Below are positions 2-16,655 of a DNA stretch of 32,000 nt, piece after piece. The notes under the pieces were generated by a model. The model ran no database searches and was not told the origin of the DNA. It worked only from the letters and a program-made list of their open reading frames with translations. Source of the stretch: an uncultured Methylococcaceae bacterium. Its GTDB lineage: Bacteria; Pseudomonadota; Gammaproteobacteria; Methylococcales; Methylomonadaceae. The stretch is taken from the NCBI GenBank assembly GCA_903917345.1, contig CAIXAE010000036.1:43604-75603 (forward strand), given 5' to 3'. Made by a program: the position numbers and the translations under genes. Positions within the stretch are counted from its first letter, which is position 1. Every line of letters starts with the position of its first letter.

Positions 2-766
2 TTTGGTATTGGTTACTATGGTTTTCTATTAAATCTAACGCATTGCATCAATACCCCCATCTGGCCTTTATTCATCCCTGGCATCTCATTAGTAATATCC
101 GCTTGGTTATACAGTTGTTTACTGAGATCAATACTGACAGGATTATGGTTAATGGCCTTATTAGTTTGGTGTGGCACACATCAAATCGGATCTTGTAACT
201 CTATTAACGATAATACGCATTTCGACAATATTACCCAGCCTATTATCAATAGCTTAGATCATGTCGCTGAAAATACCGTTAATTTACTTCCTGACAGTGA
301 CTCTGCACTCATCAATCAAATACCTAACAACAACTCGCACTTAATAACCATCGATCAAGCACTCAATAATCCAGAATTACTGAATGATTGTAAAAACCAT
401 TTATATCTTCCGAGTGCCACTGTATTTAATTTTGATCAAGATACGATTGAAGCTTCAATGGATACCAACTTAGAAAAATTAGTCAAAATTATTGAAAAAT
501 CTCCACCACAAAAAATCATTATTACCGGATATACAGACAGTTCTGGCGATGATACCCAAGAAGGCTTTAATCACAATATTGAATTAAGCCAAAACAGAGC
601 TAATGCTGTTGCAAACTGGTTAATAGAAAAAGGTAAAATAGCTCCCGAAAAAATAGATGCGCGTGGCGCGGGTAGTAAATTTCCACTCACTCATCTTGCT
701 GGGAAACAATCCTTAAATAGACGGGTTGAGATCAAACTAAACTATCCAAATTGCAAACCAGAATAA
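2..766 (+). CDS. OmpA/MotB-family peptidoglycan-binding protein; 5' end probably outside the window
   Basis: C-terminal OmpA_C-type motifs are present (IITGYTDSSGD ... NIELSQNRANAVANWL ... NRRVEIKL). Hand translation shows the frame of the 152-766 ORF stays open back to position 2. That upstream stretch encodes hydrophobic segments (..IWPLFIPGISLVISAWLY.. and ..LTGLWLMALLVW..), so M152 may be internal. There is a possible lipobox-like IGSC. Confidence 0.7.
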   Translation, partial: FGIGYYGFLLNLTHCINTPIWPLFIPGISLVISAWLYSCLLRSILTGLWLMALLVWCGTHQIGSCNSINDNTHFDNITQPIINSLDHVAENTVNLLPDSDSALINQIPNNNSHLITIDQALNNPELLNDCKNHLYLPSATVFNFDQDTIEASMDTNLEKLVKIIEKSPPQKIIITGYTDSSGDDTQEGFNHNIELSQNRANAVANWLIEKGKIAPEKIDARGAGSKFPLTHLAGKQSLNRRVEIKLNYPNCKPE

Positions 767-784
767 ATTATTTAAGACGTCTAT

Positions 785-1447
785 ATGCCTACATTTAAAT
801 ATCTTTTTAGTAAACCCAGTATAGTTTCTTGCAAAACTGAAAATACCGTTGTTTGCCATAATTTAGTGACTGCGATCAATATTGAAACATTAGGCTGGGG
901 ATGGTTAAAGATTAAAGCGAAAACTGAACCCAAGTGGCCAGATATCAAGAAATTTATTTCAGCATCAAATCAACATTTGACTGTAACTATCCCGCAAGAG
1001 AGAGAATTACAAATCACAATGTTTAACTGCTTTGGCATAGCAAAACTGATGATTAGGCCCATTAAAGCCCATAGTGAATTACATGAGATCATTGCACCGC
1101 AATATCCTATTTATAATAAAAATTTATTAAATGATATTAAGCCCCCCCAATATTCATCATTTAATAAAATGCAATTTTCATTACACAAGGTTAATCACAC
1201 ATTTAAAAACGCTAAAATCAGAAACTACGGCTTACCCAAAAACAACGTACTAAAAACAATTCAACTATCTAAGCAGTCAATACAGCTACCAAACAATAGA
1301 ATTAAATTAGGCCAATTAAAACTATTAAACACACCCATTTATCTCTTTAAGCCGCCCTTAAACTATCAGGGATTTACCAATACCTTAAAGCTCAACCCGA
1401 TTAAAATTTCGAATAAAATTGACACCACCTTTATTCAAAATGACTAA
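785..1447 (+). CDS. hypothetical protein (N/K/I-rich, no recognisable domain)
   Basis: 220-aa ORF, same strand as its neighbours, 18 nt after the OmpA-like stop and 44 nt before the next gene. No motif recognised. Confidence 0.4.
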   Translation: MPTFKYLFSKPSIVSCKTENTVVCHNLVTAINIETLGWGWLKIKAKTEPKWPDIKKFISASNQHLTVTIPQERELQITMFNCFGIAKLMIRPIKAHSELHEIIAPQYPIYNKNLLNDIKPPQYSSFNKMQFSLHKVNHTFKNAKIRNYGLPKNNVLKTIQLSKQSIQLPNNRIKLGQLKLLNTPIYLFKPPLNYQGFTNTLKLNPIKISNKIDTTFIQND

Positions 1448-1491
1448 ACCCACTACCTAAATTATTATTACTACTTTACGCGAGAATTATT

Positions 1492-2814
1492 ATGAGTTCA
1501 TTTGAGAATTACGACCCGCTCCACTTAGATCATTATGATTACAAACTAGAGTTACGCGGCATCAGAGGCGTAATTCGCAGAGCATTGTGGTTTGCTGCTG
1601 GCGGTGACATTAAACTCTTAGAACGCTGTCCACATTCAGAGCGAGTCAAATATGAAGGCTTAGGTGGCGTTGTTATGGCGACAGCTATTTTGGCATTTTT
1701 CTCAGGCTTTTTTGCAATGTATACCGTGTTTGGCCCAGTACAAACTTTAGCTAGCGCTCAAGATTTAGATACAAATGCAGCGATTAAATCTGCTGTTGTG
1801 GCGGCAATTTGGGCGTTAATCATTTTTAACCTCGATCGTTTTATTATCACCTCAACCGGTCACGGTGATGGCACTGAAGATATAACGGCTAAAGAACTAG
1901 TTCAAGGGTTACCAAGATTAGTTATGGCTGTAGTAATAGGCTTATCAATTTCAGCGCCTCTTGAAATTAGAGTGCTTAAAACCGAAATTGACGCAGCAAT
2001 AACATCTGAAAGGGATAAACGTGTAGAAGCGGATAAAATAGTAATAAATCAAGAGTTTGATCGTATCAAACAATTCAATGAAGAAAATTTACATAAAGAT
2101 GAAAAAAGACTCCAAGAACTAGACGAACATGAGGAAAAAATTCGACTAGAAATTAAAAAGCAAAGAGAAGAGTTAGATGCCGAAGAATCAGGTAAAGCAG
2201 GAAACAAGAAAAAAGGTAGGGGGAAAGGGTTCAATCAAAAGAAAGAAAATCTAGATAAAATGGAACTTGAAAATGCAGAAACTAAAAATAAATTAGATAT
2301 TCAACGACAAGAATTAAAAGTAAAAATAGAAGCCTCAAAAAATAATCTTGAAAATAATATTACCCTAAGAGATAAAAAAATAGATGATGCGATAATCAAA
2401 GAAAGTAAATTTGATGGGATATCCACAAGAATTAATTTAGCCCATGAAATATCACCCAACGTTTCAATAGCATTAACCTTATTGTTGGTTATTATAGAAA
2501 TCACCCCGATTTTTATAAAAATGATGTTAATTCGGGGGCCTTATGATTACTTAACAGATAACCAAAATAAAATTATATTAGCAAAATACGCTATAGAAAC
2601 ACTCCAAAAAGACCATAACGGTGACAATTCTGGCCACAGCATTGAAGACATTTACCATCAACCAAAGACTATCGAAAGTCATGTTATTGGTAACTTGACT
2701 GTTGAAAACCAACTGGCCGAAGAAGCTCGTGATATTTTTCTAAATACCGTAAAAGCAGATATGAATGCTGATCCAGAAAAATACATGCCAGACCTAAATA
2801 AACCCAAAGCCTAA
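1492..2814 (+). CDS. DUF4407-like membrane protein with a central highly charged coiled coil
   Basis: N-terminal signature WFAAGGDIKLLERCPHSERVKYEGLGG is followed by TM helices and NLDRFIITSTGHGDG. A long K/E-rich heptad region follows, then a C-terminal TM (ISIALTLLLVIIEITPIFIKMML). It is paralogous to 2841-4667 and 4664-5758. Confidence 0.7.
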   Translation: MSSFENYDPLHLDHYDYKLELRGIRGVIRRALWFAAGGDIKLLERCPHSERVKYEGLGGVVMATAILAFFSGFFAMYTVFGPVQTLASAQDLDTNAAIKSAVVAAIWALIIFNLDRFIITSTGHGDGTEDITAKELVQGLPRLVMAVVIGLSISAPLEIRVLKTEIDAAITSERDKRVEADKIVINQEFDRIKQFNEENLHKDEKRLQELDEHEEKIRLEIKKQREELDAEESGKAGNKKKGRGKGFNQKKENLDKMELENAETKNKLDIQRQELKVKIEASKNNLENNITLRDKKIDDAIIKESKFDGISTRINLAHEISPNVSIALTLLLVIIEITPIFIKMMLIRGPYDYLTDNQNKIILAKYAIETLQKDHNGDNSGHSIEDIYHQPKTIESHVIGNLTVENQLAEEARDIFLNTVKADMNADPEKYMPDLNKPKA

Positions 2815-2840
2815 CTTGATTACAACGAATAGGCTGTATC

Positions 2841-4667
2841 ATGTTTTCTGAGTTATGTGGTTTTAAGGCTCGCGAACTCTCTGCGTTGCCCACGGCAATA
2901 AAATACGCACTTGAAATAAAGAATCTATTAATTGTCGGTTCTTTATTATTTTGTGCGTATTCAGCTTTCTATTTATTCCAGCTAACATCACTCAACATAA
3001 CAACAGCTATTATCGTTACGTTATTCACTTTCGTTATATTGTTTAGCTTACAAAACTTGATTATTAGTGCCACTGGAATGGGTTGCGAGAAAGCCTACTC
3101 CACCAATAACTCCATCTGGCGGCCCGCCACCTTACGCCTTTATATTTTCTTTATTATTGCGTTAATTTTTTCACAGCCTTTGCTATTAGCTCTATATTCA
3201 CAAGTTTATAAAAGTGAGATTAATCAATCTTTCGAGGAACAACAAAAACTCAAGCAAGAATTCTTAGAAAACTCACTTAAAGAAAAAGAAGATAACCTCA
3301 GTTCTCAATTAGCCAATCAACATGAGATTTTAGAACGCCTAACAGGCATAAGAAATCCAAGTACAACAATCTTATCACCAGATCAAATTACATCAAACAC
3401 TACAACCCATGAGCTTAATGCTTCGCGTAGAAAAGCTTTATTAATCGGTAATCAAACATATCCAACTGCGCCACTTGTTAATCCAGATAAAGACGCGCAA
3501 GACATGTCTAATGCTCTTAAAGAAATTGGTTTTAGTACCGTATTAATAACCGATGGGACTAAAGCCACTATGGAAATGGAAATCAATAAATACATTGAAT
3601 CCATACATCCGGGTGACATCAGTTATTTTTATTACAGCGGCCATGGGATGCAACATCAGGGACAAAACTACATCATACCGATTGATACCCCACCTAAAAA
3701 CCCCATAGGGATAAATTTAATACTCGAAGGGATTAGCAAGAAAAATCCATCTGCCAGCGTTATTACTATTGATGCTTGTCGAACTTATGCGCAAGGCGAT
3801 AGTGGTGGGTTAGCCACTTTAGAGGCTGGATCCTCTACTTATATCTCATTAGCAGCAAAGCCCGGTCAAACAGCCAGCGATGGCTTCCCTCACACCAATG
3901 GTGTATATACAGGTGCAATATTAAAGCATATCAAAGAACCTACAGATATTGACGCTATATTTAGAAAAGTCATTGATGAGGTTACAAAAGCAACCCATAA
4001 CAAACAAGAGCCATGGGTTAATCACAACTTACACGGCACACTCATTTTATCAGCACCCGAATATAAACCAAACACAACACTTAACAACAGTCTACAAAAC
4101 AAACTATCACAAACTAACAACAATCAATTGCTATCTTGTGATCAAGAAGCTAATAAACTACCCCCCAATACTGTCAATGACTCTTTAATTAATTGTAATG
4201 AAAAAAAATTATTGCAACTTGAAGATCAATTAACCGCTCATAAACTTGCCAACCAAAAAGCCATTGCACAACTCAATGACGATATGCTGTACACCAACCC
4301 AATCGCTTATACACTGACATCTGATATTTATTATTTAAAAAGACATCCAACATTTTTAATATTAGGCACTATCGCCATTACAACTTTATTATTACTTGGT
4401 TTTTTAATGCGTGAAATCAAGTTTGCAGAAATGAGTGCTTATGAACAACTTTTAAATTATCACCATAGAAACTTTGTCTCTGAAAAATTTAGAGAGGCAA
4501 AACACGTAACCAGCCTGTTCCCCTATACACCGGATGAAGCTTTAAGAAACGCTCCATCGTCTTCCTATCAATACCATGATTCTAATGAAAACCACACACA
4601 AGAAGGCTTAGACTCTGCTAATTTTTTCTCTCATTTAAACAGCAAAACCTTTGGTGAAAGTATATGA
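2841..4667 (+). CDS. DUF4407-like membrane/coiled-coil protein with an inserted caspase-like (peptidase C14) domain
   Basis: The N-terminus parallels its neighbours (LCGFKARELSALPTAIKYALEIKN.., LQNLIISATGMG) and is followed by a coiled coil. A C14 core follows, with RKALLIGNQTY, His in YYSGHGMQ (H268) and Cys in TIDACRT (C313). A late TM is present (FLILGTIAITTLLLLGFLM). ATGA overlap with the next gene at 4664-4667. Confidence 0.8.
   Translation: MFSELCGFKARELSALPTAIKYALEIKNLLIVGSLLFCAYSAFYLFQLTSLNITTAIIVTLFTFVILFSLQNLIISATGMGCEKAYSTNNSIWRPATLRLYIFFIIALIFSQPLLLALYSQVYKSEINQSFEEQQKLKQEFLENSLKEKEDNLSSQLANQHEILERLTGIRNPSTTILSPDQITSNTTTHELNASRRKALLIGNQTYPTAPLVNPDKDAQDMSNALKEIGFSTVLITDGTKATMEMEINKYIESIHPGDISYFYYSGHGMQHQGQNYIIPIDTPPKNPIGINLILEGISKKNPSASVITIDACRTYAQGDSGGLATLEAGSSTYISLAAKPGQTASDGFPHTNGVYTGAILKHIKEPTDIDAIFRKVIDEVTKATHNKQEPWVNHNLHGTLILSAPEYKPNTTLNNSLQNKLSQTNNNQLLSCDQEANKLPPNTVNDSLINCNEKKLLQLEDQLTAHKLANQKAIAQLNDDMLYTNPIAYTLTSDIYYLKRHPTFLILGTIAITTLLLLGFLMREIKFAEMSAYEQLLNYHHRNFVSEKFREAKHVTSLFPYTPDEALRNAPSSSYQYHDSNENHTQEGLDSANFFSHLNSKTFGESI
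3423..4040 (+). other. caspase/metacaspase-like C14 catalytic domain within CDS 2841-4667
   Basis: His-Cys dyad motifs SGHG (His codon 3642-3644) and DACR (Cys codon 3777-3779) sit in the canonical order and spacing after the LLIGN strand. Confidence 0.7.
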
Positions 4668-5758
4668 ACACATTCACTCAATTTTTGTGCGAGTTTGGTG
4701 GTGCAGACCCGCAAATATTACGCACCTGCCCACCGCTAGAAATAGCTAAATATAAAAACCAAGGCTTATTAGTCTTTATGCTCGTATTAATTGCTCATGT
4801 CACTAGTATTTACTCTTTAATGCTGATCCATACCAGTTCAGTCGAATCCCCCCTTTCAACATTAAATGTATCCGATATTTTTAGCGCATTTTTTATGGGC
4901 TTTTGTTGGACTTTTATTGTCCATAACAGTTATCGTCTCATTTTAAGTTCAACCGGTTATGGTGATGGAAACTCCAAAATACGGACTAGAGAACTGTTGG
5001 CATCCATTCCTAAATTTTTACTTGCCACCGCAATAGGTCTATGTTCTGGTGCGACGATCACTGTTGTTGCTCTTCATACAGAAATGAATCTAGGACTATC
5101 AACCCAGCAGACATACTTATTAACTACATTAAATAAAAATATAGACCATAAATTTGCATCAAAACTCGATACTGTGTATCAAAAACAAGCAGATAGCATG
5201 GATAAAATAAGATATCTTCAAGCTAAGCAATCACAATATATAAAAAATAAAACCAATACAGAGGAAGAAAAATTAGCTATTACTAATCAAATAGATATCT
5301 TAAATAAAGAAACGGAACACTATACTAACGAACGAAAAAATATCCATGAAGAAATTAACCAGCTAAAATTGGTAAACGAAGCGCAAATAGTTAACTCAAT
5401 AGACTTTATTACGACTGTTGATAAAGCCATGGAGCGGCATTTATTGGCAACATTGTCTATTTTTAGCTTTACCCTATTAATTTATCTAGCCCCTCTTCTC
5501 ATTAGAATGATCTGGGCTAAAAATGCTTATGAATATCTAGTTGATTTCCAGAACTATAAACTACTGTCTAAATGCGGCATAGCCCCGAAAGCACATGAAA
5601 TTAAAATCGGCGATGAAAAAATATGCATCGACCGATTTACCATTGCTGAACAGATACTAGACGAAATGACCAGTCAACACGTCATATACAGAAAATACAA
5701 TGCTGAGAAACAACATCAATATTATTTAAATAAACAAAAATTAAGAAAAAATAATTAA
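4664..5758 (+). CDS. DUF4407-like membrane protein with coiled coil
   Basis: Motifs EFGGADPQILRTCPPLEIAKYKNQGL, TM helices, YRLILSSTGYGDG, a coiled coil, and a C-terminal TM (LSIFSFTLLIYLAPLLIRMIW). Start overlaps the upstream stop (ATGA). Confidence 0.7.
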   Translation: MNTFTQFLCEFGGADPQILRTCPPLEIAKYKNQGLLVFMLVLIAHVTSIYSLMLIHTSSVESPLSTLNVSDIFSAFFMGFCWTFIVHNSYRLILSSTGYGDGNSKIRTRELLASIPKFLLATAIGLCSGATITVVALHTEMNLGLSTQQTYLLTTLNKNIDHKFASKLDTVYQKQADSMDKIRYLQAKQSQYIKNKTNTEEEKLAITNQIDILNKETEHYTNERKNIHEEINQLKLVNEAQIVNSIDFITTVDKAMERHLLATLSIFSFTLLIYLAPLLIRMIWAKNAYEYLVDFQNYKLLSKCGIAPKAHEIKIGDEKICIDRFTIAEQILDEMTSQHVIYRKYNAEKQHQYYLNKQKLRKNN

Positions 5759-6298
5759 TCAAACTCGCTTAATCAAGATATGCTCAAAAACATCAGTATC
5801 ATTTGATTTAGCTTCTTTAAAATACCGAACCACTTGAGAGGTACCACCTGGTTTTTCGGCAGTATCACCGTCCCATAAAGCCATTAAAACATTGGCGTTA
5901 TTTGCCAAATAAATTGCTAGTTGTTGATAACATAAATCCCTATTCTCATCAGTCATTGGGGACAAACTAGGTAATGCTTCAACACTAACGGCATGCTTTA
6001 ATAAATTATAGAACTCATCTAGTGAGCTTTGTGTTTTAAAATCAGCAATATAATCAGACAATGCCATAGGCAATATCGCTTTAAATGGCACACCTAACTC
6101 AAGCGCAATCGCTACAGCTAAGCGATCAGCACCATCAGCAAGACCAGAAAGTAGGCATATTGACTTATCTTTGTATTGGTTTTGTATTTTTAATAATCGA
6201 TTGTTAATGTCGGCTTTTATTACCGGCAAATCATGAATACAAATAGCTCGATGACCTGTAATACCTATTTGTAGATCAAAATCAAATTTTGACTTCAT
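5759..6298 (-). CDS. SLOG-superfamily (LOG/DprA/YpsA-like Rossmannoid) protein
   Basis: Motifs IGITGHR, LSGLADGADRLAVAIA and a LOG-like KPGGTSQVV are present in the order expected for SLOG/LOG-fold proteins. ATGA overlap (6295-6298) with the upstream STAND gene. Confidence 0.6.
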   Translation of the reverse strand: MKSKFDFDLQIGITGHRAICIHDLPVIKADINNRLLKIQNQYKDKSICLLSGLADGADRLAVAIALELGVPFKAILPMALSDYIADFKTQSSLDEFYNLLKHAVSVEALPSLSPMTDENRDLCYQQLAIYLANNANVLMALWDGDTAEKPGGTSQVVRYFKEAKSNDTDVFEHILIKRV

Positions 6299-9200
6299 GT
6301 TAACTGCCTCTTTATCAGATCTTCTAACTTATCAAAGCAATCTATAGTATCCGGATGGACAGCACCCAAAACCTTTTCATGAATTGCTATGGCACGTCGA
6401 TATAGCATTTCCGCCTCAACATAATTCCCTTGATCAGATAACAATAATGCTAAATTTTCGACACTAATAACAGTATCAGGATGTTCATTTCCCAAAACTT
6501 GTTCACGTATTGAAAGCACAATACGACTTAAAGTTAGAGCTTCAGTGTAACTACCTTGTTCATAAAACAAACTAGCTAAATTGTTATAACTGGTTGCTAT
6601 ATCTGGATGACTTGTACCTAAAGAACTTTCATTGATTGCTAATACACGTCGATAAAATGATTCTGCAAGATCATAAGCACCCTGCGCCCATGATATAACC
6701 GCTAATGCATTAAGGCTTTGAACTAAATCTGGGTGATCTATACCAAATACATTTTCATGCATTCCTAACACACGGTTATAGTACATCTCTGCTTTTGCAT
6801 AGTCTTGCAAATAATATGATGCTTCAGCTAATAAATTAAGAGTTGGTGCTATGTGTAAATGATCACTACCTAAAACTCTTTCGTGTATTACCAATATTCG
6901 CTTAAAAAAACTTATTGCACTTTCAAAATCACCTTGATCATAAAATAACCCACCCAAATTATTAAGACTCATAATCGTATCGGGGTGCTCATAACCCAAA
7001 ACTTTTTCCCGTATCGCTAAAGTTTTACGATGCAACTCTTCTGAATCCGAATACATACCCTTATCAAATAACAAACTAGCTAAGTTGTTTAAACTCATAG
7101 CTGTGTGTGGATGCTCAGAACCGAGTACTTTTTCACTTATCAATAATGAACGATGATAAAGATCTTCTGCTTCTAAAAAATTTCCTTTATGGTGCAATAA
7201 AAGACCTAAGTTATTAAGGCTTGTTGAAATTTCAATGTGATCTCTACCCAATACCTTTTCATAAACTGAAATTGCTAGACGATAAAAAGCTTCTGACTCA
7301 TCGTAATTTCCTTGATTAAACATTACTAAAGCTAAGTTATTAAGACTAATAGCAGTCATGGGATCTTCTGGCCCCAATACATCTTGACGTATTTTCAACA
7401 CCTGACGATGAAGTACCTCTGCGTTATCGTAGTTACCTTGATCACGTAGAGTTTCAGCCAGATTATGAAGGCTAATAACCATATCAGGGTTATTAGCCCC
7501 TAATAATTTTTCACGTATATTTAGTGACTGACGATGTATTGACTCAGCATCCCCATAGTTGCCTTGTTTGCGTAACATCTCACCTAAACTGTTAAGACAA
7601 GTAGCAATATCAGCATGATCACCACCTAATATCTCTTCAGTAATTGCCAGCGAACGTCGATAAAGTGTTTCTGCCACTTTTAACCTAACAAATCTATTTG
7701 TAAAAAAATAGCCTAAATTAAAAAGTGTAAATGCTAACAACCCAGTATCTACAATATTTTCTGCCTCCCACTTTTCTAACGCCTCTAGGTAACACTGGCC
7801 TGGATCGTATTGATCACCCATTACCAACCAATAACCCAATAACGCCAAATCATCTTTTTCATATAGAATTGAAAACAGGGGTATAGCACTAATACAATCC
7901 TTTAAGGACTCCCATTGCTCGGCTTGTTGCCATTGCCACGGCAACTCTTCTGCTACACGACTACTTAATTCTTGATTATTAAAGTAGTGAGCTAATTTGA
8001 TATGTGCATTAGATTCCGCCTCTTTATTATTAAAACAATAGTGCTTAACTGCTAGCCTTAAGTATTCATGAAAAAAGTTTAATAAGCTCCCTCGTTTTGC
8101 TAGATGCGTATCAATCGCCATTAAAAATGTAGAAATACTCAATCGACTTAAACCAGTAATGCCGGCTATTTCTGTTTCAGATAGCCCGCGCCTAGCTGCC
8201 CACAGGGCTTGCATAATTTGGATAACGATAGCTTTACCAAAATCTTTCTCTAAGCGCTCTAGCACTAAGACGAATAATTCTTGGGGATTGTTGGCCGTTA
8301 ATAAGGCATCAATGCGCTGATCTAAGTGTTCAAAGTATCCAAAGATACGCAACTCTTCTAATACTGTTTTTAAAAACAGAGGGCTCCCTGTTTGAGGCGC
8401 TTGTGCAATGCATCGTGTTTGTTGAATCGATAAAGCTTTGCGATAAGTCGCCAACCAATCACGGATTAATTGCTCTTTACGTTTTACATCCAGCGCTTCT
8501 AAAGTATGAATAGGCCAGTTTCGTTGACTTAATAACTCTAATTGATCGCCAGGAATAACACTAAAAATAGCCGTTACATTTTCCTGCCAAAAAGTAGGTA
8601 GCCATAGGCACTCTTTGCTTTCTAATTGATTAATGCCATCAATAATCAACAACAAAGGATCTTGCTCACTTACTTTTGCCAACCATAAGGGAAAATCTCT
8701 AATCACATCTTCAGGAGTACTGGGTAAATCTTGCCCATCATTTAAACGATGTTTTATTTCAGACATTATCCGGTACACAATAGCCACTGGATCAACATCA
8801 CCCGATATACCGATATAATGTTCAATGATAAATTGCTTAGGATTTGCAAGGCGTTGTTGACTGACCCAGTAAGCCAGCAAAGCCGACTTACCTGATCCAG
8901 ACTCACCTGTCACTAATAAAGCATGATTTGTTTTAGCCTGTAAAAAAGTATCTAACGCTTCAATATCTCTAGGATTCGCACTATAAGCATGGCAACGCTC
9001 AATTGCATAGCTACGATGAGCATCTTGTGCGGCCTTAAACGGTGTAGGTGTTTGGTCTAGTGGAAACTGCTTATCTAAAACGGCTAATAAATCAACTTTA
9101 ATTAACTCACCTAGTGCTTCTATACTGATGTAATTATCTCTAACAGGTAAACCACTACTGCGTAGCCTTGTTTTAAGCGTTGCTAATTTAGCTTTTAGTG

Positions 9201-9714
9201 GAGACTCTGTTTCAAAGTAATCATTAGACGCATTAAACTGGTCAGCTAATGATTGACTGAGTGCGGCGTCTCTTAAATAAAAGAAGCAGTGTTCAGCCAT
9301 ATCAGGGTTATCTAATACCCCATGTAAGATTTCCATCTCTGTGACACTTAAGCCGGCTTTTAAACTGTCTTCTAAGAAAGGAAATAAGCTGAGTAATTCT
9401 GCTTTATGATCTAAATCGGTATCTAAGGGTGCCCAACCATAGCGATCGCCTAATAAACTAACAAAGTAAGGTCGGCAGCGATTAATCTCTTCAAGACAAA
9501 TCCGAAGCACTTTGCCTTGTTCAGCTTCTTCTTGTGTGACACCCCAGCGCAAATCAATTTCTGTAAACTCTACCTGCCTATCACGACAAGCACGACGAAC
9601 AACAGGAAACACGTGACTCATTAAATAATGCCGCTCCTCTTGCATATCCCGAAAAGTTGAGGAGATAAAGACGCGTATTTCGCGATTAGTGTTGGTTTGA
9701 TGTGTATCTGTCAT
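6295..9714 (-). CDS. DUF4062 (TIR-like)-NACHT/STAND NTPase-TPR protein
   Basis: N-terminus IRVFISSTFRDMQEERHYL...FVSLLGDRYGW is DUF4062-type. Walker A is LLVTGESGSGKSALLAYW. The C-terminus has 11 diverged 42-aa kinesin-light-chain-type TPR units (..LG.xHPDT..SLNNLA..). Confidence 0.85.
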   Translation of the reverse strand: MTDTHQTNTNREIRVFISSTFRDMQEERHYLMSHVFPVVRRACRDRQVEFTEIDLRWGVTQEEAEQGKVLRICLEEINRCRPYFVSLLGDRYGWAPLDTDLDHKAELLSLFPFLEDSLKAGLSVTEMEILHGVLDNPDMAEHCFFYLRDAALSQSLADQFNASNDYFETESPLKAKLATLKTRLRSSGLPVRDNYISIEALGELIKVDLLAVLDKQFPLDQTPTPFKAAQDAHRSYAIERCHAYSANPRDIEALDTFLQAKTNHALLVTGESGSGKSALLAYWVSQQRLANPKQFIIEHYIGISGDVDPVAIVYRIMSEIKHRLNDGQDLPSTPEDVIRDFPLWLAKVSEQDPLLLIIDGINQLESKECLWLPTFWQENVTAIFSVIPGDQLELLSQRNWPIHTLEALDVKRKEQLIRDWLATYRKALSIQQTRCIAQAPQTGSPLFLKTVLEELRIFGYFEHLDQRIDALLTANNPQELFVLVLERLEKDFGKAIVIQIMQALWAARRGLSETEIAGITGLSRLSISTFLMAIDTHLAKRGSLLNFFHEYLRLAVKHYCFNNKEAESNAHIKLAHYFNNQELSSRVAEELPWQWQQAEQWESLKDCISAIPLFSILYEKDDLALLGYWLVMGDQYDPGQCYLEALEKWEAENIVDTGLLAFTLFNLGYFFTNRFVRLKVAETLYRRSLAITEEILGGDHADIATCLNSLGEMLRKQGNYGDAESIHRQSLNIREKLLGANNPDMVISLHNLAETLRDQGNYDNAEVLHRQVLKIRQDVLGPEDPMTAISLNNLALVMFNQGNYDESEAFYRLAISVYEKVLGRDHIEISTSLNNLGLLLHHKGNFLEAEDLYHRSLLISEKVLGSEHPHTAMSLNNLASLLFDKGMYSDSEELHRKTLAIREKVLGYEHPDTIMSLNNLGGLFYDQGDFESAISFFKRILVIHERVLGSDHLHIAPTLNLLAEASYYLQDYAKAEMYYNRVLGMHENVFGIDHPDLVQSLNALAVISWAQGAYDLAESFYRRVLAINESSLGTSHPDIATSYNNLASLFYEQGSYTEALTLSRIVLSIREQVLGNEHPDTVISVENLALLLSDQGNYVEAEMLYRRAIAIHEKVLGAVHPDTIDCFDKLEDLIKRQLT

Positions 9715-9761: not shown

Positions 9762-10013
9762 GTGGCGTTAAAATTTTCTAATAAAGCTTATGACCGAGGC
9801 AGTGAGTACGCCCATTTTCGTAAAATTGCTTCATTACGAGAATATCTATTGGTCGCACAAGACCAGCCTAACATCGAACGCTATGTGCGACAAGGCTACG
9901 TTTGGATATTATCAGAAGTAACGGGAATTGAGGCCACCATGTCATTAGATAGCATCGACTGCATGCTTAGTTTACGTGAGGTTTATGACAAGGTTATGGA
10001 TGATTTTGATTAA
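9762..10013 (+). pseudogene. C-terminal fragment of a Uma2-family (DUF820) endonuclease
   Basis: 83 codons starting at GTG. DRGSEYAHFRKIASLREYLLVAQDQPNIERYVRQ matches the C-terminal half of Uma2 proteins (D..K..Y...EY.LV.Q....E.Y). The N-terminal half is absent. Confidence 0.5.
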
Positions 10014-10175
10014 TAAAACAGTGGTAGATTCCCTATTATTATTTTAAAAAGACTGTGATATGGCTTGAAAACTCATCTCTTTAAATTTAATACCGAAAAT
10101 TAACTAAAAATATCCGTTAAAATTATAAATAATCTCCTATATTAATATTACGTTTCGAAAGTATGGTTTTCTCCT

Positions 10176-10673
10176 ATGAGTTTTCAAGAAAAAATAAATT
10201 TATATATTGCAGATGGTTACAAAAAAACAATAACAAATCAGTCTGGACTTGACACCTATGTTATGTATAAAAACAACATAGTCGTTCGCATTGGGTCAGA
10301 TAGTTCCTATGACCATTATGCAAAGCTTATTAAAAGTAAAATAATTCAATCTAAAAATGCACCTATAATCACTAAACATGAAACTGTTTTGAATGTATTT
10401 GATAACACAAAGTTAGACTATACCTGCACCGAAATGGAACTACTGAATGAACTGAATGATGATGAGGCGACACGTTATAAGGAATGGATTGACAAAGAAA
10501 TAAATAATATTGTAGATAAAAAACTTGGTATAAGTGACCCTTTCAAAATTTTAGATTTAACACGTAAATTAGTTTTATATGCTCAAAAAAACAATCTTTT
10601 TCTTGATTTAGTGCAGTCTAAAAATATCATGAAGAGAGGTGAAACTTTTGTACACATCGATCCTTTCTCTTAA
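10176..10673 (+). CDS. hypothetical protein
   Basis: 165-aa ORF in a very AT-rich context. No secure domain recognised. Confidence 0.4.
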   Translation: MSFQEKINLYIADGYKKTITNQSGLDTYVMYKNNIVVRIGSDSSYDHYAKLIKSKIIQSKNAPIITKHETVLNVFDNTKLDYTCTEMELLNELNDDEATRYKEWIDKEINNIVDKKLGISDPFKILDLTRKLVLYAQKNNLFLDLVQSKNIMKRGETFVHIDPFS

Positions 10674-10834
10674 AACATGTAACAACCATAAAACACGCCT
10701 GCGCTCTATCAACAACTCTAATTTTGATTATCTGTGATTTATTGTGAGATTAGATATTATTTGACCTGTGTATTTAATGTTGATTGATATCTTTTATAAT
10801 ATCTAGAACTGCAATCTACCTAACTTATACATAC

Positions 10835-11431
10835 TTAACCATATATTTCGTCTACATTGCATGATTTGACGATAGAAAAAACTTCGTGTTTTTTATCGTA
10901 AACCACTCTTTGGAACACTCCGTTCAGACATTGAAAAAAATCATAAGCTGGAAAACATGAATATAATTCTTTATCTTCAAGCTCTATTACATTTGTATCA
11001 ATACCAAATTGAATTGGTTTTGTAAAAAACAAACCTAAGACCCAGTATGTATGAACATATATTTCGTTATAAGTCACTCGATTTGTAATAGCATTATAAA
11101 GTTCAAGTGGCGATGCCACATTGCCTGATTTTCGTGCTTGCTCCCTTAATACAGGTGTAGAACCGGTATCGTTAGGTGACGCAAGTGTAATTGATTCTGA
11201 AGTTCTGGGAGCTAAGATTACACCAAAATTTCCAGTGTAATTATTTACCGGCTGATCTCCACAGACAATTGTTGAACAGGAAATGTCATAATTTCCCGTA
11301 ATAACTTTGCAAATTTTTTCAATCGATCCTAATTGATTAGTTTGAGCATTGCCAACCAGTGAAACATAACTTGAACAATGCACTAAAACAGCATTATTTT
11401 TTTTCAATACATCGATATATGAAGTAGGCAT
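10835..11431 (-). CDS. hypothetical protein
   Basis: 198-aa ORF, 58 nt downstream of the Cys-rich ORF on the same strand. No domain recognised. Confidence 0.45.
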   Translation of the reverse strand: MPTSYIDVLKKNNAVLVHCSSYVSLVGNAQTNQLGSIEKICKVITGNYDISCSTIVCGDQPVNNYTGNFGVILAPRTSESITLASPNDTGSTPVLREQARKSGNVASPLELYNAITNRVTYNEIYVHTYWVLGLFFTKPIQFGIDTNVIELEDKELYSCFPAYDFFQCLNGVFQRVVYDKKHEVFSIVKSCNVDEIYG

Positions 11432-12222: not shown

Positions 12223-14910
12223 TCAAACGACTCGCATATCTTTTTGAAGATCTCTTAAATTCTCCAAGCAAAGCTTAGTATCAGGATGATCAGGCCCCAA
12301 CCCATGTTCAACAATGGCCAAAGCTCGAAGATAAAGCGGCTCCGCAGCATCATAATCACCTTTATTGTTAAGCAATACTGCGAGATTGTTTAAATAAGTA
12401 CCCGTTTTAGGATGATCAGGCCCCAACGCATTTTCAGTAATCATCAAGGCTCGACGACAGAGGTTTTCTGCTGCAGCATAATCACCTTTATCTTTAAAAA
12501 ATGTTGCGAGATTATTTAAATAAGTACCCGTTTTTGGATGATCGAGCCCTAATGCCTGTTCTGCAATCGCCAAGGCTCTACGAAATAGCGGCTCTGCGAC
12601 ATCATAATCACCTTTTTCATGAAGCAATAATGCGAGATTGTTTAAAGAAGTACCTGTTTCAGGATGATCAGGGCCCAGCGCTTGTTCTGCAATCGCCAAT
12701 GCTCGACGACAGAGGTTTTCTGCTGCAGCATAATCACCTTTTTCATGAAGCAATACTGCGAGATTGCTTAAAGAAGTGCCCGTATCAGGATGATCAGGAC
12801 CCAACGCTTGTTCTGCAATCGCCAAGGCTCGACGATAAAGTGGTTCTGCGACATCATAATCCCCTTGATCTTGAAGCAATGATGCGAGATTGTTTAAACG
12901 AGTACTCATATCAGGATGATCAGTTCCCAAGGCCTGTTCTGTAATCACCAAGGCTCTGCGAAAAAGAGGCTCTGCATTATCATAATCACCTTTTTTAGCA
13001 AAATACTGTAAATATTGCGCTAAGTTACTTAAAGTCACAGCCGTATATTCATGCTCTACCCCATAACATAACTCACTTAACCTGACGCCAAACCATCCCC
13101 AAGACTCTTGTTGCTCATGCTTAAGATAAGGTAATGTTCTTAGGTCTACTAGTTTTTCGATATTCTCACTGTATTTATCAACCGCCTCTTGATCAATGAT
13201 TTTTAAAAGCGCTTCATCCGACCACTGCTTTAATTGCTCTGGCAATTCCAACGCCATAAAGCTATCTAGGCAACTGACTAAATCCTCTGTCTGGGTAAAC
13301 TGCTCCCACAACACTTTACCTAACACCTCATGACCCTTTTCAACTTCTACAAAGTAATCAGCCCCGGCACTCTTCTCATCCAACAACCAATCTTGCAAGC
13401 TCTTATGAAACAGTGCAACGCCTTGCTCAGTAACGGTCAGGTAACTACCCAAGCGCTCAAGCACTTTAGAGCGTTGGCGTTTACTGTAATTTAATAAGGT
13501 TTCTATATCGCTGGTGGGAATAGGACGTGAAGATGCAACTAATATTTCCAATACCGGTAATAACTCTTGCTCATAATTATGGGTATCAGGGTATCGGTAT
13601 TTAAATTCACTTAAATACAAAGCACTCAAGCCTTTGGGCAGATCATTCAACTGTGTTATGTCGATTATATTTTGTTGAATGGCGGCTTGTAATTGCCTTA
13701 CATATAAAAAGTTACCTTGTGCGGCTGTTAATATCTGCTGTTGTGCATGGATTAAATCAGTTTGTTCTAAGCCTAAAGTGGGCAACCAATGTTGGATATA
13801 CGTTTTAACATCTTCTTGATTCCGCGGATCATCCGCGTTAATGTCATGCAGTCCAAATTGTTCTAATTGCCCACGAATTCCGGATTCTGGCCGACTAGTG
13901 ACCACCCACCCTAACCAATCGGGTAACTTGCTTAGCTGTGAGGCTATTAATTCCGTCAGTTCACTTTGACCGTTTTGTAAGGTTTCATCGAGCGCATCAA
14001 TAACAATCAATTGTCTGGGGCGATTGCCATTAATGGCATAGCGTAAAGGATTGGCTAATAAATAATCAAACAGATCCACTGGGTTCTTGCGGTCTAGGTC
14101 TTTTATTTCTGGTTGATTGAGCAGATGCCGACGATAGTCAGGTAAACGAGTCGCTAATTGAAAAGCAATCGAACGAATCACCCGTGTGGGGTCTCTGCGC
14201 TCAGGACTGTTATAACGACAAAATTGTGCCGCGATCACTTGGGCTTTATTGATGTGTGCCAGCCATGCTACCACCGCACTTTTGCCCATGCCTGGGCCAC
14301 CACTTAAACAAAAAATACGTGAACTTCTGTCACCTTCTCGCCAGATATTAATTTCATCCAGTAACCATTGCCGTCCGGTAAAGCCTGGCAAACGACTATT
14401 AATATCAGGGGTACAATCTAAGGGTAACAAGTACTCTTCAAGTTGACTAATCTCTCCAGCAAAACGTTGGTTATCAGGATGATCAATCACCGCACAGATT
14501 TGTGTAAAGCGCTCGGCGTACCAGACTTCAAAAGCATCTGGATCGCTTTGTTGACGCGCTTGCCAGTCGTGCATATCTAACCATTGCAAATGGCTCACCG
14601 ATATCGGCAGACTGACATCGACTTCGGGTTGAACCAGAATCGTAAAGACATAAGCTTTGCCGGCACCTAAGGCGATAGCGATTTCATCCCTACATACACC
14701 AGGATCACGGGTGGAATGCTCTGATAAAAAAGCCAGCACTTGATCACTCTCAATAATTCCTTCGGTGACTTCGCGTCGCCAATCGTCACCAAATTCAATA
14801 CGCTCACGATCTAACCAGACCTCATGACCTAAGTGGGCAAGATCGGTTTTAATCCGTAAGACTAAAGCTTCTGCGGCATTATCATGGCCGTAACTGAGGA
14901 AGATTTTCAT
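12223..14910 (-). CDS. TIR-STAND (NACHT/NB-ARC-like) NTPase-TPR protein
   Basis: The N-terminal TIR reads MKIFLSYGHDN..VWLDRERIEFGDDW..VLAFLS..CRDEIAIAL, with a candidate catalytic Glu. Walker A is FCLSGGPGMGKSAVVAWL and Walker B-like is LIVIDALDE. There are six near-identical 42-aa TPR units at the C-terminus. Confidence 0.9.
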   Translation of the reverse strand: MKIFLSYGHDNAAEALVLRIKTDLAHLGHEVWLDRERIEFGDDWRREVTEGIIESDQVLAFLSEHSTRDPGVCRDEIAIALGAGKAYVFTILVQPEVDVSLPISVSHLQWLDMHDWQARQQSDPDAFEVWYAERFTQICAVIDHPDNQRFAGEISQLEEYLLPLDCTPDINSRLPGFTGRQWLLDEINIWREGDRSSRIFCLSGGPGMGKSAVVAWLAHINKAQVIAAQFCRYNSPERRDPTRVIRSIAFQLATRLPDYRRHLLNQPEIKDLDRKNPVDLFDYLLANPLRYAINGNRPRQLIVIDALDETLQNGQSELTELIASQLSKLPDWLGWVVTSRPESGIRGQLEQFGLHDINADDPRNQEDVKTYIQHWLPTLGLEQTDLIHAQQQILTAAQGNFLYVRQLQAAIQQNIIDITQLNDLPKGLSALYLSEFKYRYPDTHNYEQELLPVLEILVASSRPIPTSDIETLLNYSKRQRSKVLERLGSYLTVTEQGVALFHKSLQDWLLDEKSAGADYFVEVEKGHEVLGKVLWEQFTQTEDLVSCLDSFMALELPEQLKQWSDEALLKIIDQEAVDKYSENIEKLVDLRTLPYLKHEQQESWGWFGVRLSELCYGVEHEYTAVTLSNLAQYLQYFAKKGDYDNAEPLFRRALVITEQALGTDHPDMSTRLNNLASLLQDQGDYDVAEPLYRRALAIAEQALGPDHPDTGTSLSNLAVLLHEKGDYAAAENLCRRALAIAEQALGPDHPETGTSLNNLALLLHEKGDYDVAEPLFRRALAIAEQALGLDHPKTGTYLNNLATFFKDKGDYAAAENLCRRALMITENALGPDHPKTGTYLNNLAVLLNNKGDYDAAEPLYLRALAIVEHGLGPDHPDTKLCLENLRDLQKDMRVV
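12240..13010 (-). repeat. tandem 126-bp (42-codon) TPR-coding repeats with a 252-bp higher-order unit
   Basis: The anchor aggatgatcagg (with variants) recurs at 12283, 12409, 12535, 12661, 12787 and 12913, exactly 126 bp apart. A 41-nt identical block sits at 12449-12489 and 12701-12741. Confidence 0.85.
14506..14910 (-). other. TIR domain of CDS 12223-14910
   Basis: The FLSYGH start strand, the W..E motifs and the conserved Glu in CRDEIAIA fall within the first ~135 residues. Confidence 0.75.
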
Positions 14911-16655
14911 GTGTTTGTGTCGGTTGCTATCATTAAATTAATGGCTTTTAACAAATGCGGAATATTTTGAATACTTTGCCTATCTTTTAGCTTTTCATCA
15001 GCGGGTAAGTCATCAAAATCCACTAAGCACGGATGAAATAACATTTTATTGTTTCTGATGGGAGCATATTTCCACCCAGCCAATCGTTTTTGGGCACACC
15101 ATCGCGCATGTTCTAAACGTTGTAAAATATTTAACTCTAATTCGGAAAAAACAAATGTCGGTGCATCTGGGTTGAGAGGCACTAATTTTCGACCAATCGC
15201 TCTTAATTTAATATCAATATGCGCGGCGGCATAACGATTGGAATCGCGTATAGACTCATCTAAATATGGCCAGGCTTCATTGATAGACGCAGCTGGATTT
15301 TTGTCTAAATAATCTTGATGAATAACTTGCGCCATCTGGTCTTTAGCATATTCAATTAAGCGTAAGACATCTCTATCTTGATCATCACCAACGTTATTCG
15401 CCTTATTTGAAAAGAGTGGGACAACCTGAATTTTCTTGTTATGTTGATTAAATTCTTGAAGTAAACTGCCGCCCGGTGGATCAACGACAACAATATTGTA
15501 AGACAAGCCGGCTTTTGAGCGTGCGATATCAATTTTCTTAGCAGAAATCACGTTACTGATTTCATTTTTAGTACAGATATAAACACAGCTAGGTTGATTA
15601 CTATCCCCAAATAACCTATCAATTTCAGGTTCTGGTAATTGATCAATACTGTTTTCTATTAATTTTATGTCTAACAACTCCAAGAATGCAGGATGGCGTT
15701 TAATTAACTGTTGATATTGCTGTTCAGCGTTAGCGTCAATAACCGTAATTTTTGGTTTATGGCCTCCACGATAATGGCCTAGTTGGGCCAAGTAAAATAA
15801 TACACTTTGGCCAATACTACCTAAGCCGATTAAAACCAAACGTATTTGCACATCATCTTGAGTCGCTATGCCACTATCAGGTGGATAATCATCTAGCATT
15901 TTTCTAGCGGTCAGCTCTATCTGATTAACAAAGCTGACTTTAACGACATCTTCAGGACTAAAGAAATCGACTGTCGATAAATTATGTTTAAGGTTGATAT
16001 CAGGCACATTGCATAAACATCTTAAAGTACTATCTTGCCCAGTGATTTTTAACGCTAACTTACACAGCGAAATATTATGTGCATAATCATCATTAAACGC
16101 TAATAAGCTGTGAGCTTTATTAATATGAGAGACTTCTAGGTTATGACTGTCATCACCCTTAGACAGAATAATAATGACACCATTTTTTCTAAGTAAAGAA
16201 ACATTGGCATCATCTAAAGAACTATCCGCTATTAGCACTACTTTTGTAGTCGACGCTAACACCACAGATGCCGCTACGGCGATATCATTTGAGCCATACA
16301 CAATAATGTGATTATTCAAAAACATTGACATGAAGCGATCTACGGTAAACCCCATTTGTCTTAAATAAACATGAATAATACTGGCCGCGATTGTTATCTG
16401 AATCAGCGCCGCCGACAAATTAACCAGAAAGGGGTCATCGCCATCCAAACTGAGTGTTGTACAAATGATGGTATAGATACTTTTACCTATACTAAAAAAA
16501 ATCGATTCATTTTCTACAGCATCTAGGTTTTTCCAAACAGCCAGAACAAAAACAATACCGGTTAATTTCCATAATCGAGTTACAAAGTTAGAGGCTAACC
16601 ATTCCAAAAGGTTATGTAAAATTGAGGACTTCTTGTTATCTGATACGGTGTGCAT
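14907..16655 (-). CDS. membrane protein: 2-TM channel-like N-terminus, two Rossmann (KTN/RCK-like) domains, C-terminal RyR domain
   Basis: The N-terminus has TM1 (LTGIVFVLAVW), a pore-loop-like SIYTIICTTLSLDGDDPF and TM2 (LSAALIQITIAASIIHVYL). The two Rossmann segments are IIVYGSNDIAVAAS and LVLIGLGSIGQSV. The RyR-domain signature is LEHARWCAQKRLAGWKYAP..FHPCLVDFDDLPADEKLKDRQSIQNIP. ATGA overlap with the TIR-STAND gene. Confidence 0.7.
   Translation of the reverse strand: MHTVSDNKKSSILHNLLEWLASNFVTRLWKLTGIVFVLAVWKNLDAVENESIFFSIGKSIYTIICTTLSLDGDDPFLVNLSAALIQITIAASIIHVYLRQMGFTVDRFMSMFLNNHIIVYGSNDIAVAASVVLASTTKVVLIADSSLDDANVSLLRKNGVIIILSKGDDSHNLEVSHINKAHSLLAFNDDYAHNISLCKLALKITGQDSTLRCLCNVPDINLKHNLSTVDFFSPEDVVKVSFVNQIELTARKMLDDYPPDSGIATQDDVQIRLVLIGLGSIGQSVLFYLAQLGHYRGGHKPKITVIDANAEQQYQQLIKRHPAFLELLDIKLIENSIDQLPEPEIDRLFGDSNQPSCVYICTKNEISNVISAKKIDIARSKAGLSYNIVVVDPPGGSLLQEFNQHNKKIQVVPLFSNKANNVGDDQDRDVLRLIEYAKDQMAQVIHQDYLDKNPAASINEAWPYLDESIRDSNRYAAAHIDIKLRAIGRKLVPLNPDAPTFVFSELELNILQRLEHARWCAQKRLAGWKYAPIRNNKMLFHPCLVDFDDLPADEKLKDRQSIQNIPHLLKAINLMIATDTNT
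14937..15143 (-). other. RyR (ryanodine-receptor repeat, PF02026-like) domain
   Basis: The pattern E-H-x-R-W...GW-x-Y...hP-x-LV-x-[FY]-x-x-LP-x-x-EK-x-x-DR is typical of bacterial RyR domains. Confidence 0.65.

Follow-up and report, generated by a model that had tools for sequence, protein, structure and literature searches.

What does a bacterium do with a caspase-like protease built into a membrane protein, encoded between two relatives of that protein and downstream of a gene for a peptidoglycan-binding domain? The question is raised by a stretch of 32,000 nucleotides from an uncultured Methylococcaceae bacterium (assembly GCA_903917345.1, contig CAIXAE010000036.1, positions 43,604 to 75,603), referred to below as the window, in which five genes follow each other on the + strand from the left edge. 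Bacterial immunity increasingly turns out to employ caspase-like proteases as executioners and, to our knowledge, those characterised so far are soluble cytoplasmic enzymes. We propose, tentatively and at slightly less than even likelihood, that the product of this locus is an inner-membrane complex, anchored to the cell wall, with the role of a conflict effector, most likely an anti-phage one of the abortive-infection type. The proposal starts from what is observed: the gene content, the paralogy of three of the products, a C14 fold with an intact catalytic dyad, a conserved synteny and a recurrent adjacency to genes for STAND and SLOG-like proteins.

The five open reading frames (ORFs) lie at 2..766, 785..1447, 1492..2814, 2841..4667 and 4664..5758. 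They are spaced by 18, 44 and 26 nt and then joined by an ATGA stop/start overlap at 4664-4667, so that the five same-strand genes which a preliminary description, made from the letters of the window, had placed at 2-5758 are found as described, gaps and overlap included. The first ORF (2..766, 254 codons) encodes the last transmembrane (TM) segments and the periplasmic OmpA-like peptidoglycan-binding domain of a longer protein (Pfam OmpA, PF00691; 2.3e-17, 63.6 bits against a gathering threshold of 27.2), and the peptidoglycan-binding motif TD...NxxLSxxRA is present as ITGYTDSSGDD...NIELSQNRANAV (NIELSQNRA). The earlier naming of this gene as OmpA-like holds for the domain, although the ORF is only the 3′ part of a gene cut by the window edge. 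The second gene (785..1447) encodes a basic protein of 220 amino acids (aa) which matches no known family and which we call unk220. It contains 30 Lys and Arg against 11 Asp and Glu and has neither a TM segment nor a signal peptide; a conserved, beta-rich N-terminal domain of ~100 aa with a GWGW motif is followed by a Pro-rich variable tail. Searches of Pfam, NCBIfam, PADLOC and PHROGs gave zero matches for unk220, a word-index search returned six close homologues, and the gene is syntenic in ~25 loci. The remaining three genes encode DUF4407 paralogues, labelled D1, D2 and D3 in order: D1 (1492..2814) is the canonical member with 440 aa (Pfam DUF4407 5.3e-54), D2 (2841..4667) has 608 aa and carries the caspase (DUF4407 1e-10, Peptidase_C14 6.1e-34), and D3 (4664..5758), whose start overlaps the D2 stop, is a divergent member of 364 aa (DUF4407 2.4e-15).

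The identity of the protease is clear. Peptidase_C14 (PF00656) covers residues 196-397 of D2 (window 3426..4031) with 118.2 bits against a gathering threshold of 21.4, and the two catalytic residues, His268 in SGHG (codon 3642-3644) and Cys313 in DACR (codon 3777-3779), are invariant in 12 homologues with identities down to 24% and are kept in ~20 further D2 proteins. The best solved relative in a PDB profile search is the MALT1 paracaspase (E 3.7e-27), and a Foldseek search with the caspase domain again gives MALT1 (E 8e-15, template modelling score 0.79 to 3v4o_A), with caspases 7, 9 and 11 ranked next. A Peptidase C14 domain of the caspase-hemoglobinase fold is thus confirmed at the level of predicted structure, and the earlier recognition of an intact C14 domain with an H268/C313 dyad in the middle paralogue is borne out by Pfam, alignment and fold match together. 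In the AlphaFold2 model of D2, for which the predicted local distance difference test (pLDDT) is 74 overall and ~90 for the caspase domain (197-395), the TM module leads into an outgoing stalk helix (124-169), a flexible linker, the caspase, a second linker, a returning helix (442-484), TM4 (503-525) and a helix on the cytoplasm side. The preliminary description had put the caspase after the coiled coil and ahead of the last TM helix. That position does not agree with the model, in which the domain lies between the outgoing and returning helices of the stalk, itself situated between TM3 and TM4; because these flank it on both sides, the protease would be held at the distal tip.

The specificity of the enzyme can also be predicted. 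In a HMMER alignment to 3v4o_A, the MALT1 S1 residues D365, D462 and E500 pair with D218, D311 and D347 of D2, each of which is invariant or at least 90% conserved. Outside the caspases, the C14 enzymes with an acidic pocket that have been characterised all cleave after Arg or Lys (PMC5756287), and D2, whose S1 triad is acidic, belongs by this feature to the Arg/Lys-specific subgroup of C14 (paracaspases, metacaspases and orthocaspases) and is predicted to take a basic residue, Arg or Lys, at P1. MALT1 is the closest comparison by sequence and by structure, and D2 shares with it both the catalytic dyad and the three acidic S1 residues. Unlike MALT1, D2 has no death or Ig-like domains: the protease is inserted in the stalk of a membrane protein, its flanks are coiled-coil helices and TM segments, and Pfam shows DUF4407 and C14 only, which rules out a MALT1-type paracaspase proper. 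Orthocaspases with TM segments are on record (MaOC6, PMC5756287), but not within DUF4407 or this five-gene cassette.

Relatives of D2 were found at other loci, which carry labels of the form L001; those with a caspase-type cassette are referred to as type A and caspase-less DUF4407 loci as type B. At some of them the dyad has been lost. In L014/L015 (11327-13063), L020 (10318-12066) and L021 (10320-12041) SGHG is replaced by RGPS and DACR by FSLS, with the whole D2 architecture kept (hhalign 99.7%, 498 columns), and in L016/L017 (11362-13206 / 2679-4523), the lineage with a canonical TIR_2 STAND as partner, Tyr has taken the place of the catalytic His (NGYG) and DACR is retained. These versions indicate that the domain also has a non-catalytic role, and the pseudo-caspases would offer natural controls for separating catalysis from scaffolding. 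At the D2 position there are also variants of 364-501 aa with other inserts (L018, L026, L033, L044, L047 and L054), in which no Pfam domain was found. In L014/15 a gene for an SNase-domain protein comes after D3. Extra caspase genes adjoin the cassette at two loci: L006 4161-6376 (-) encodes a divergent 568-aa caspase protein and a 170-aa OmpA protein, and L051 13011-14096 a stand-alone caspase of 362 aa after the D3 position.

The paralogy of the three ORFs, another claim of the preliminary description, is upheld by independent comparisons. All three match DUF4407 (PF14362) above the gathering threshold of 31.3 bits, with 184 for D1, 41.9 for D2 and 57.1 for D3, D2 covering only profile positions 30-159, the N-terminal half. 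D1 and D3 align over their full length in BLASTP (5e-24), and hhalign relates the D1-family and D2-family profiles with a probability of 96% (E 2.6e-9) over the TM1-TM3 module. Two shared features had been read more generously than the alignments allow: the motif G.D...L..CP near the N-terminus is readily recognised in D1 and D3, D2 having only a degenerate form of it, and the TM helix described as terminal is present but is followed by a tail of 85-100 aa.

In the AlphaFold2 model of D1 (pLDDT 83, from a 75-sequence alignment) there are four TM helices, a coiled-coil hairpin that is predicted to be antiparallel (163-233 / 245-305) and to extend ~9-10 nm, and a small alpha/beta tail after TM4. 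The invariant residues are N113, D115 and R116 at the end of TM2, the STGHGDG loop, P156 and E158 in TM3 (P156-L-E158), and E336 and P339 in TM4 (E336..P339..K343); both intramembrane Glu residues are lost in D2 and D3. The loop at the tip of the hairpin is conserved, Gly-rich and basic, with E231, G242 and G244 invariant or nearly so. A motif at window 2185-2244 (D1 residues 232-251) recurs family-wide as E-A-x-G-K-x-G-S/N-G-K/R-x-G-x-G-P-x-Y/W-R/K, with G242 invariant in the 75 sequences, and could be a contact to the wall, a contact to a partner or a cleavage site. Foldseek searches with the D1 model found nothing significant in the PDB (best E 0.06; ABC-exporter TM domains, F-BAR, AhlC) or in BFVD (best E 0.01; tape-measure and SMC-like coiled coils), a phmmer search of the PDB with D1 came back empty, PADLOC, NCBIfam and PHROGs hold no models for D1 or D3, and for DUF4407 as a whole there is neither a PADLOC model nor a solved structure.

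The strongest indication that the five products belong together comes from gene order, which was assessed where the flanking DNA sufficed. OmpA-unk-D1-D2(caspase)-D3 is the order not only of the window but also of L001/2, L003, L004, L005, L006, L007-9, L016/17, L022, L043, L045, L049 and L051, at least 12 independent loci from Gamma- and Betaproteobacteria that span D2 identities of 24-74%. The hosts include another Methylococcaceae metagenome-assembled genome (MAG) with the closest relative (L004, D2 70% identical), Gallionella (L005), Polynucleobacter (L006) and other Betaproteobacteria (L007-9, L022, L045), the remainder being metagenomic contigs (L001/2, L003, L016/17, L043, L049, L051). 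Since the synteny is intact at D2 identities of 24-27%, it argues strongly that the cassette is a selected unit whose products work together. Independent occurrence of the genes in other genomes had been named as an observation that would speak against a joint function; in distant genomes they are conserved as a unit, and such co-occurrence is what a hetero-oligomer tethered by an OmpA protein predicts. Profile searches that failed to support paralogy or a C14 fold had been named alongside it, and neither objection applies here.

The cassette is nevertheless one elaboration within a larger family. A word-index search returned 16 full-length DUF4407-caspase fusions and an exhaustive search of 1.84 billion representatives with hidden Markov models (HMMs) gave ~70 full-length D2 clusters (at 50% identity) among the best 150 matches; the distribution of the caspase-type cassette is patchy and rare. 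D1-like proteins are far commoner than the fusion, with 239 word-index matches and >500 metagenomic relatives. Most of them belong to a simpler module, which consists of a D1-like protein, a short DUF4407 paralogue of ~300 aa and a third protein, in which a cytoplasmic N-domain and one or more TM segments precede OmpA or which, in another subset, has an N-terminal J domain instead; Hsp70 genes lie near such modules in two loci. A motif x-G-x-F-x-G-x-Y/F-x-G is common to the N-domain of the third protein and to the N-region of the window-type OmpA protein. The window cassette thus appears to be an elaborated form of a 'DUF4407 pair + anchor' module that has gained a caspase paralogue and a small basic protein. 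Full-length orthologues of the OmpA protein are polytopic, with 521-661 aa made up of a cytoplasmic N-region, 3-5 TM segments and the OmpA domain, and in L004, L003 and L005 the N-region contains CxxC pairs of a Zn-ribbon-like kind. The L004 protein begins with two CxxC...CxxC pairs, which a soluble region of ~200 aa and a low-complexity linker connect to several TM segments and OmpA, and directly upstream of its full-length gene (L004 5850-6224) lies a gene for a 124-aa predicted lipoprotein with the lipobox LTGC, at a position whose counterpart falls beyond the edge of the window.

If the cassette is an effector, a sensor might be sought among its neighbours. The stop codon of D3 in the window immediately adjoins that of a convergent gene (TAA directly followed by TTA at 5756-5761) for a SLOG-like protein of 179 aa (5759..6298, -). 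This gene is translationally coupled, through ATGA at 6298-6295, to an upstream gene for an NLR-like STAND protein of 1139 aa (6295..9714, -) with the architecture DUF4062 - P-loop NTPase - TPR. The Pfam matches of the SLOG-like protein, YAcAr (1.6e-4, 21.9 bits against 28.2) and DNA_processg_A (6.7e-4, 19.3 against 29.6), are both below gathering; the motifs GxTGHR, SGLAxGAD and WDG..GGT are conserved, and a search of PDB sequences gave no match. The STAND protein matches DUF4062 (PF13271) at residues 14-98 (7.7e-14, 52.1 bits against 24.7), AAA_22/NACHT, TPR_10/12 and TPR_NPHP3. DUF4062 has been shown experimentally to be a TIR-like NADase in phage defence, and it occurs in the NLR-like TEP1, NWD1 and NPHP3 (bioRxiv 10.64898/2026.05.01.722283, 10.64898/2026.06.25.731849). 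Four cassette-linked STANDs share invariant acidic residues, including E76 in CLEEI, which are candidates for the catalytic Glu. Between the window and L004 the DUF4062 head (9325-9714 (-) against L004 534-923) is 95% identical and the whole STAND 67%, a combination of conserved effector head and diverged TPR sensor that would be as expected for a receptor under diversifying selection.

The association recurs in several arrangements. L001/2 have a SLOG gene, an M41 peptidase gene and two DUF4062-TPR STANDs in convergent orientation; L004 has a STAND and a SLOG gene upstream on the same strand; L051 has a divergent DUF4062-NACHT-WD40 STAND; L016/17 have a convergent, canonical TIR_2-NPHP3_N-TPR STAND; L049 has an AAA_16-TPR STAND immediately downstream; and L006 has SLOG and M41 genes only, without a STAND. 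The STAND thus varies in orientation (convergent, co-directional or divergent), in its head (DUF4062 or TIR_2) and in its sensor (TPR or WD40). A STAND flanks six of nine evaluable type-A lineages against ~3 of 27 caspase-less loci (Fisher p ~0.003, from a hand count of lineages that are not fully independent). The SLOG gene flanks four of the nine (the window, L001/2, L004 and L006) and is always the gene that touches the cassette, meeting it stop codon to stop codon in L001, L006 and the window and lying directly upstream of it in L004. Labels of STAND neighbours were re-checked with Pfam, as iterated 'DUF4062' and 'D3' HMMs caught TPR and D1 sequences, and several type-B STAND candidates, TPR-HATPase sensor kinases by Pfam, were discarded. 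Among 136 proteins neighbouring 19 caspase-type loci the commonest Pfam families are TPR-STAND, AAA_16, DUF4062 and TIR_2. Whether the SLOG/STAND pair is the sensor of the cassette had been left open, and the recurrence in six lineages, despite varied orientation, repeats and head domains, moves the answer towards yes. The M41 protein (L001 13600-15063, L006 13589-15055) has 487 aa and a Peptidase_M41 (FtsH protease) domain only; it has no counterpart in the window and in these two lineages is reported between SLOG and STAND.

A cytoplasmic sensor sharpens the question of which side of the membrane the protease is on. The periplasm, and not the cytoplasm, is the probable location of the stalks and the caspase. 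The D3 orthologue of L004, which is 78% identical, carries a J domain with an intact HPD after TM4. J domains partner the cytoplasmic DnaK, so the C-terminus should be cytoplasmic and the loop before TM4 should lie on the other side. The counts of Lys plus Arg in the D1/D2 families (3.1/3.8 in the N-flank, 1.0/0.25 in the TM1-2 loop and 2.7/3.4 in the TM2-3 loop) would fit the positive-inside rule for a four-TM protein with both termini inside. Within the large D2 loop there are exactly three Cys in 12 of 12 sequences, namely the catalytic one and a conserved pair just downstream of the caspase domain (C433, C452); the pair is kept even in most pseudo-caspases, and the D1 stalk has no Cys. The OmpA domain of the partner protein is, moreover, periplasmic by nature. 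It is also conceivable that the same complex has the opposite topology, with a cytoplasmic caspase that, much as in type IV Thoeris, would be activated directly by the signal of a TIR-type STAND and SLOG and would cut cytoplasmic targets, or its own paralogues so as to open a pore. That arrangement would need no transmembrane relay, since the cytoplasm is where STAND, SLOG and TIR-like proteins reside; its reducing conditions would better suit a free catalytic Cys, and the charge balance right around TM3 and TM4 is nearly neutral. It is opposed by the J domain behind TM4, by a TM1-2 loop poor in Lys and Arg beside an N-flank and a TM2-3 loop rich in them, by the strict conservation of the extra Cys pair in a loop with no other non-catalytic Cys, and by the periplasmic domain of the genetic partner, and on balance we regard it as unlikely. 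The membrane-held protease of the preliminary description survives as regards the tether, which is present in the D2 model. The cytoplasmic arrangement, which is close to the picture drawn there, gives way to the periplasm favoured by the J domain, the Lys and Arg counts and the Cys pair; with a periplasmic protease, other substrates and triggers become plausible. J domains recur with DUF4407 (L004 11905-13332, L066 11207-13120, L014 15866-17185 and type-B loci), which suggests that DnaK/Hsp70 may be recruited to the cytoplasmic face.

The link between cassette and sensor, and the defensive role itself, can each be doubted. The cassette and the SLOG/STAND operon might be two independent systems in one defence island, the STAND being a self-contained NADase effector (Swarozyc/Avs-like) and the cassette having an envelope trigger of its own, for example phage-induced damage to wall or membrane. 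DUF4062 proteins are able to defend as single genes, a second, unrelated TIR-STAND operon in the window indicates that such genes cluster here anyway, cassette and operon are convergent in the window, and three evaluable lineages (L005, L006 and the L009/L045 clade) have no STAND, of which L005 and L009/L045 are also without SLOG. Independence of this kind sits poorly with an adjacency found in six lineages despite rearrangement and domain swaps and much rarer beside caspase-less modules, and with the invariable position of SLOG as the gene touching the cassette; we think it somewhat unlikely, and it would be compatible with a cassette that is still defensive. Since lineages without a STAND exist, the coupling would be facultative and the cassette able to work or be triggered alone, which makes the STAND a probable facultative partner. 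Another suggestion is that the complex is a housekeeping or stress machine of the envelope, a wall-anchored scaffold or an ion-driven, stator-like unit with the caspase as its dedicated periplasmic processing protease. The wide occurrence of DUF4407 pairs with an OmpA or DnaJ (+ Hsp70) partner in the >500 metagenomic relatives would suit such a machine, as would neighbourhoods that include response regulators, DUF350 and metabolic genes, the invariant intramembrane Glu and Pro of D1, which resemble those of ion-coupled stators, and the L014/15 variant, found among TonB-receptor, MFS and Sox genes. The caspase-type cassette, however, is patchy and rare, has a GC content below that of the flanking genes and lies amid CRISPR, toxin-antitoxin, TIR and STAND genes, and its pseudo-enzymes and swapping of partners are typical of conflict systems, so that a housekeeping role seems rather improbable. 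Several points nevertheless weigh against a wall-anchored conflict effector fed by a STAND. Beside the STAND-less lineages, the proposed hetero-oligomer draws on synteny and paralogy, and the topology on one orthologue fusion, Lys/Arg statistics and a Cys pattern; proteolysis is dispensable in the relatives with altered dyads (L014/15, L020, L021 and L016/17); the neighbourhoods of caspase-less DUF4407 modules are mixed and give no clear sign of defence; and the mobile-element signature usual for defence genes is weak, in a family that PADLOC does not model. The idea of a plasmid or phage cargo was dropped, as tblastn with D1 gave no match in PLSDB plasmids and six weak matches in very large IMG/VR contigs.

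Considering the preferred reading, that of a wall-anchored complex with a periplasmic protease, the assembly, topology, direction of signalling, substrates, pore formation and role in defence may be pictured as follows. D1, D2 and D3 would associate through their four-TM modules into one TM assembly, each projecting a coiled-coil stalk of ~8-10 nm, of similar reach, into the periplasm, and the OmpA-domain protein would pin the assembly to peptidoglycan. Three elements would make up the input side: the cytoplasmic N-region of the OmpA protein, unk220, and those loops and tails of D1, D2 and D3 that face the cytoplasm. With a single D2 in each complex the caspase would stay an inactive monomer, induced proximity being the established switch for MALT1 and for initiator caspases. 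For roughly half of the lineages, the window among them, the input would come from the neighbouring STAND with its TIR-type NADase head and from the SLOG protein: the STAND would sense the invader and consume or convert NAD+, and SLOG would bind the nucleotide product and engage the cytoplasmic face of the complex. Where these are missing, the Zn-ribbon N-region or the basic protein might take their place. Relayed outwards through the membrane, the signal would cluster or unlock the caspase, which would cut after Arg or Lys in the periplasm, the candidate substrates being envelope tethers or the stalks of its own paralogues, rich in Lys and Arg. Finally, the D1 TM bundle with its invariant intramembrane Glu and Pro would become ion-conducting and the envelope or the membrane potential would collapse, a pore or suicide role that is pure conjecture.

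The outward direction has a parallel in LapD/LapG, where a cytoplasmic nucleotide controls a periplasmic cysteine protease through a transmembrane receptor (PMC4359373, PMC5231407). The proteins are unrelated to those discussed here, LapG is soluble and of another fold, and the pathway serves the control of adhesion and not conflict. The complete scheme, an inside-out immune relay from a cytosolic NLR-like NADase sensor and SLOG through a DUF4407 hetero-oligomer to a periplasmic Arg-specific caspase and a lethal channel, seems to us rather unlikely. If true, it would be the first periplasmic cell-death pathway executed by a caspase and the first function for DUF4407, a large membrane family with hundreds of relatives and paired paralogues accompanied by OmpA or DnaJ/Hsp70 partners; the step from NLR to caspase known from animal cell death would gain a counterpart in the bacterial envelope, and the pathway would show a route by which a cytoplasmic alarm reaches the periplasm.

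Comparison with described systems indicates that the locus fails the defining features of Thoeris, gasdermin operons and Zorya, and it appears from its gene content to be an undescribed caspase-bearing conflict system. Rousset and colleagues are said to have reported in Science in 2025 that in type IV Thoeris a TIR signal activates a caspase-like protease. The present locus resembles that system in the genetic linkage of a TIR-type, presumably NAD+-processing protein to a C14-type protease in a defence context, and type I Thoeris in having a putative SLOG-type nucleotide-binding protein, as in ThsA. Unlike in Thoeris, the TIR-like domain heads a STAND/NLR, SLOG is free-standing, and the caspase is inserted in a four-TM DUF4407 protein, probably periplasmic, with two paralogues and an OmpA anchor. 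Thoeris types I-IV were rejected because there were no Ths models among the PADLOC matches, a STAND protein carries the TIR-like domain in place of a stand-alone ThsB, and SLOG is without an effector domain. Gasdermin-protease operons likewise have a caspase-like protease beside membrane-active partners, and a proteolytically triggered pore is a candidate output here too; in contrast, the candidate pore formers of the cassette are already integral membrane proteins and its protease is membrane-tethered with a predicted basic P1. No gasdermin family was among the Pfam and PADLOC matches of the seven proteins, and a bacterial gasdermin system was rejected.

The MotAB-like ZorAB of Zorya shares with the cassette an inner-membrane complex, an OmpA/MotB-like peptidoglycan anchor, an extended coiled coil and, inside the membrane, conserved acidic residues. 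It differs in that the coiled coil of the cassette is a TM3-TM4 hairpin, probably periplasmic, whereas that of ZorAB is cytoplasmic, and in that the anchor of the cassette is polytopic with a large cytoplasmic N-region. PADLOC gave a weak ZorB match through the OmpA domain (2.5e-8) and no ZorA, ZorC or ZorD on the seven proteins, and Zorya was rejected. The neighbouring STAND, for its part, is comparable to the DUF4062/NIR NADases (Swarozyc, Evangelion) and the Avs/NLR-like STANDs, since it has the architecture of NPHP3/TEP1-like NLRs, in which DUF4062 is a proven NADase. Those are described as single-gene systems, whilst here the STAND is coupled to SLOG by an ATGA overlap and recurs beside the cassette. 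The literature searched on DUF4407/PF14362 and on combinations of caspase, OmpA, STAND and transmembrane proteins contains no description of the cassette, and a 2026 survey of STANDs (PMC13581612) does not mention it.

Other features of these genomes deserve brief mention. A DNA-level scan of the window revealed no Rfam family, tRNA or terminator excess, the sole meaningful repeat being a 126-nt periodicity of the TPR. In the Gallionella MAG (L005 3323-14249) the five-gene cassette lies between a reverse transcriptase-Cas1 fusion with two Cas2-like genes and Card1, a CARF nuclease, with RAMP genes near; this arrangement could reflect clustering in an island or an accessory role in type III CRISPR. 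Around the cassette on the P0004 contig lie genes for PIN/PhdYeFM, WYL, Uma2, a TIR protein and a C1 peptidase, which, like those in L005, are usual cargo of defence islands. The stretch 9762-11431, which separates the two STAND operons of the window, is of low GC (0.284 at 10001-11000) and contains ORFs of 83, 165 and 198 aa, the latter two without a match in a Pfam scan. The second, unrelated NLR-like operon (12223-17564, -) encodes a TIR_2 - NPHP3_N/NACHT - TPR protein of 895 aa, whose gene overlaps that of a 582-aa RyR/TrkA_N protein, and then a Ser/Thr protein kinase; genes for an N6 methylase, a Metallophos protein and double-AAA proteins follow at 19141-23898. Together, the second STAND operon and the genes at 19141-23898 mark the window as a conflict island.

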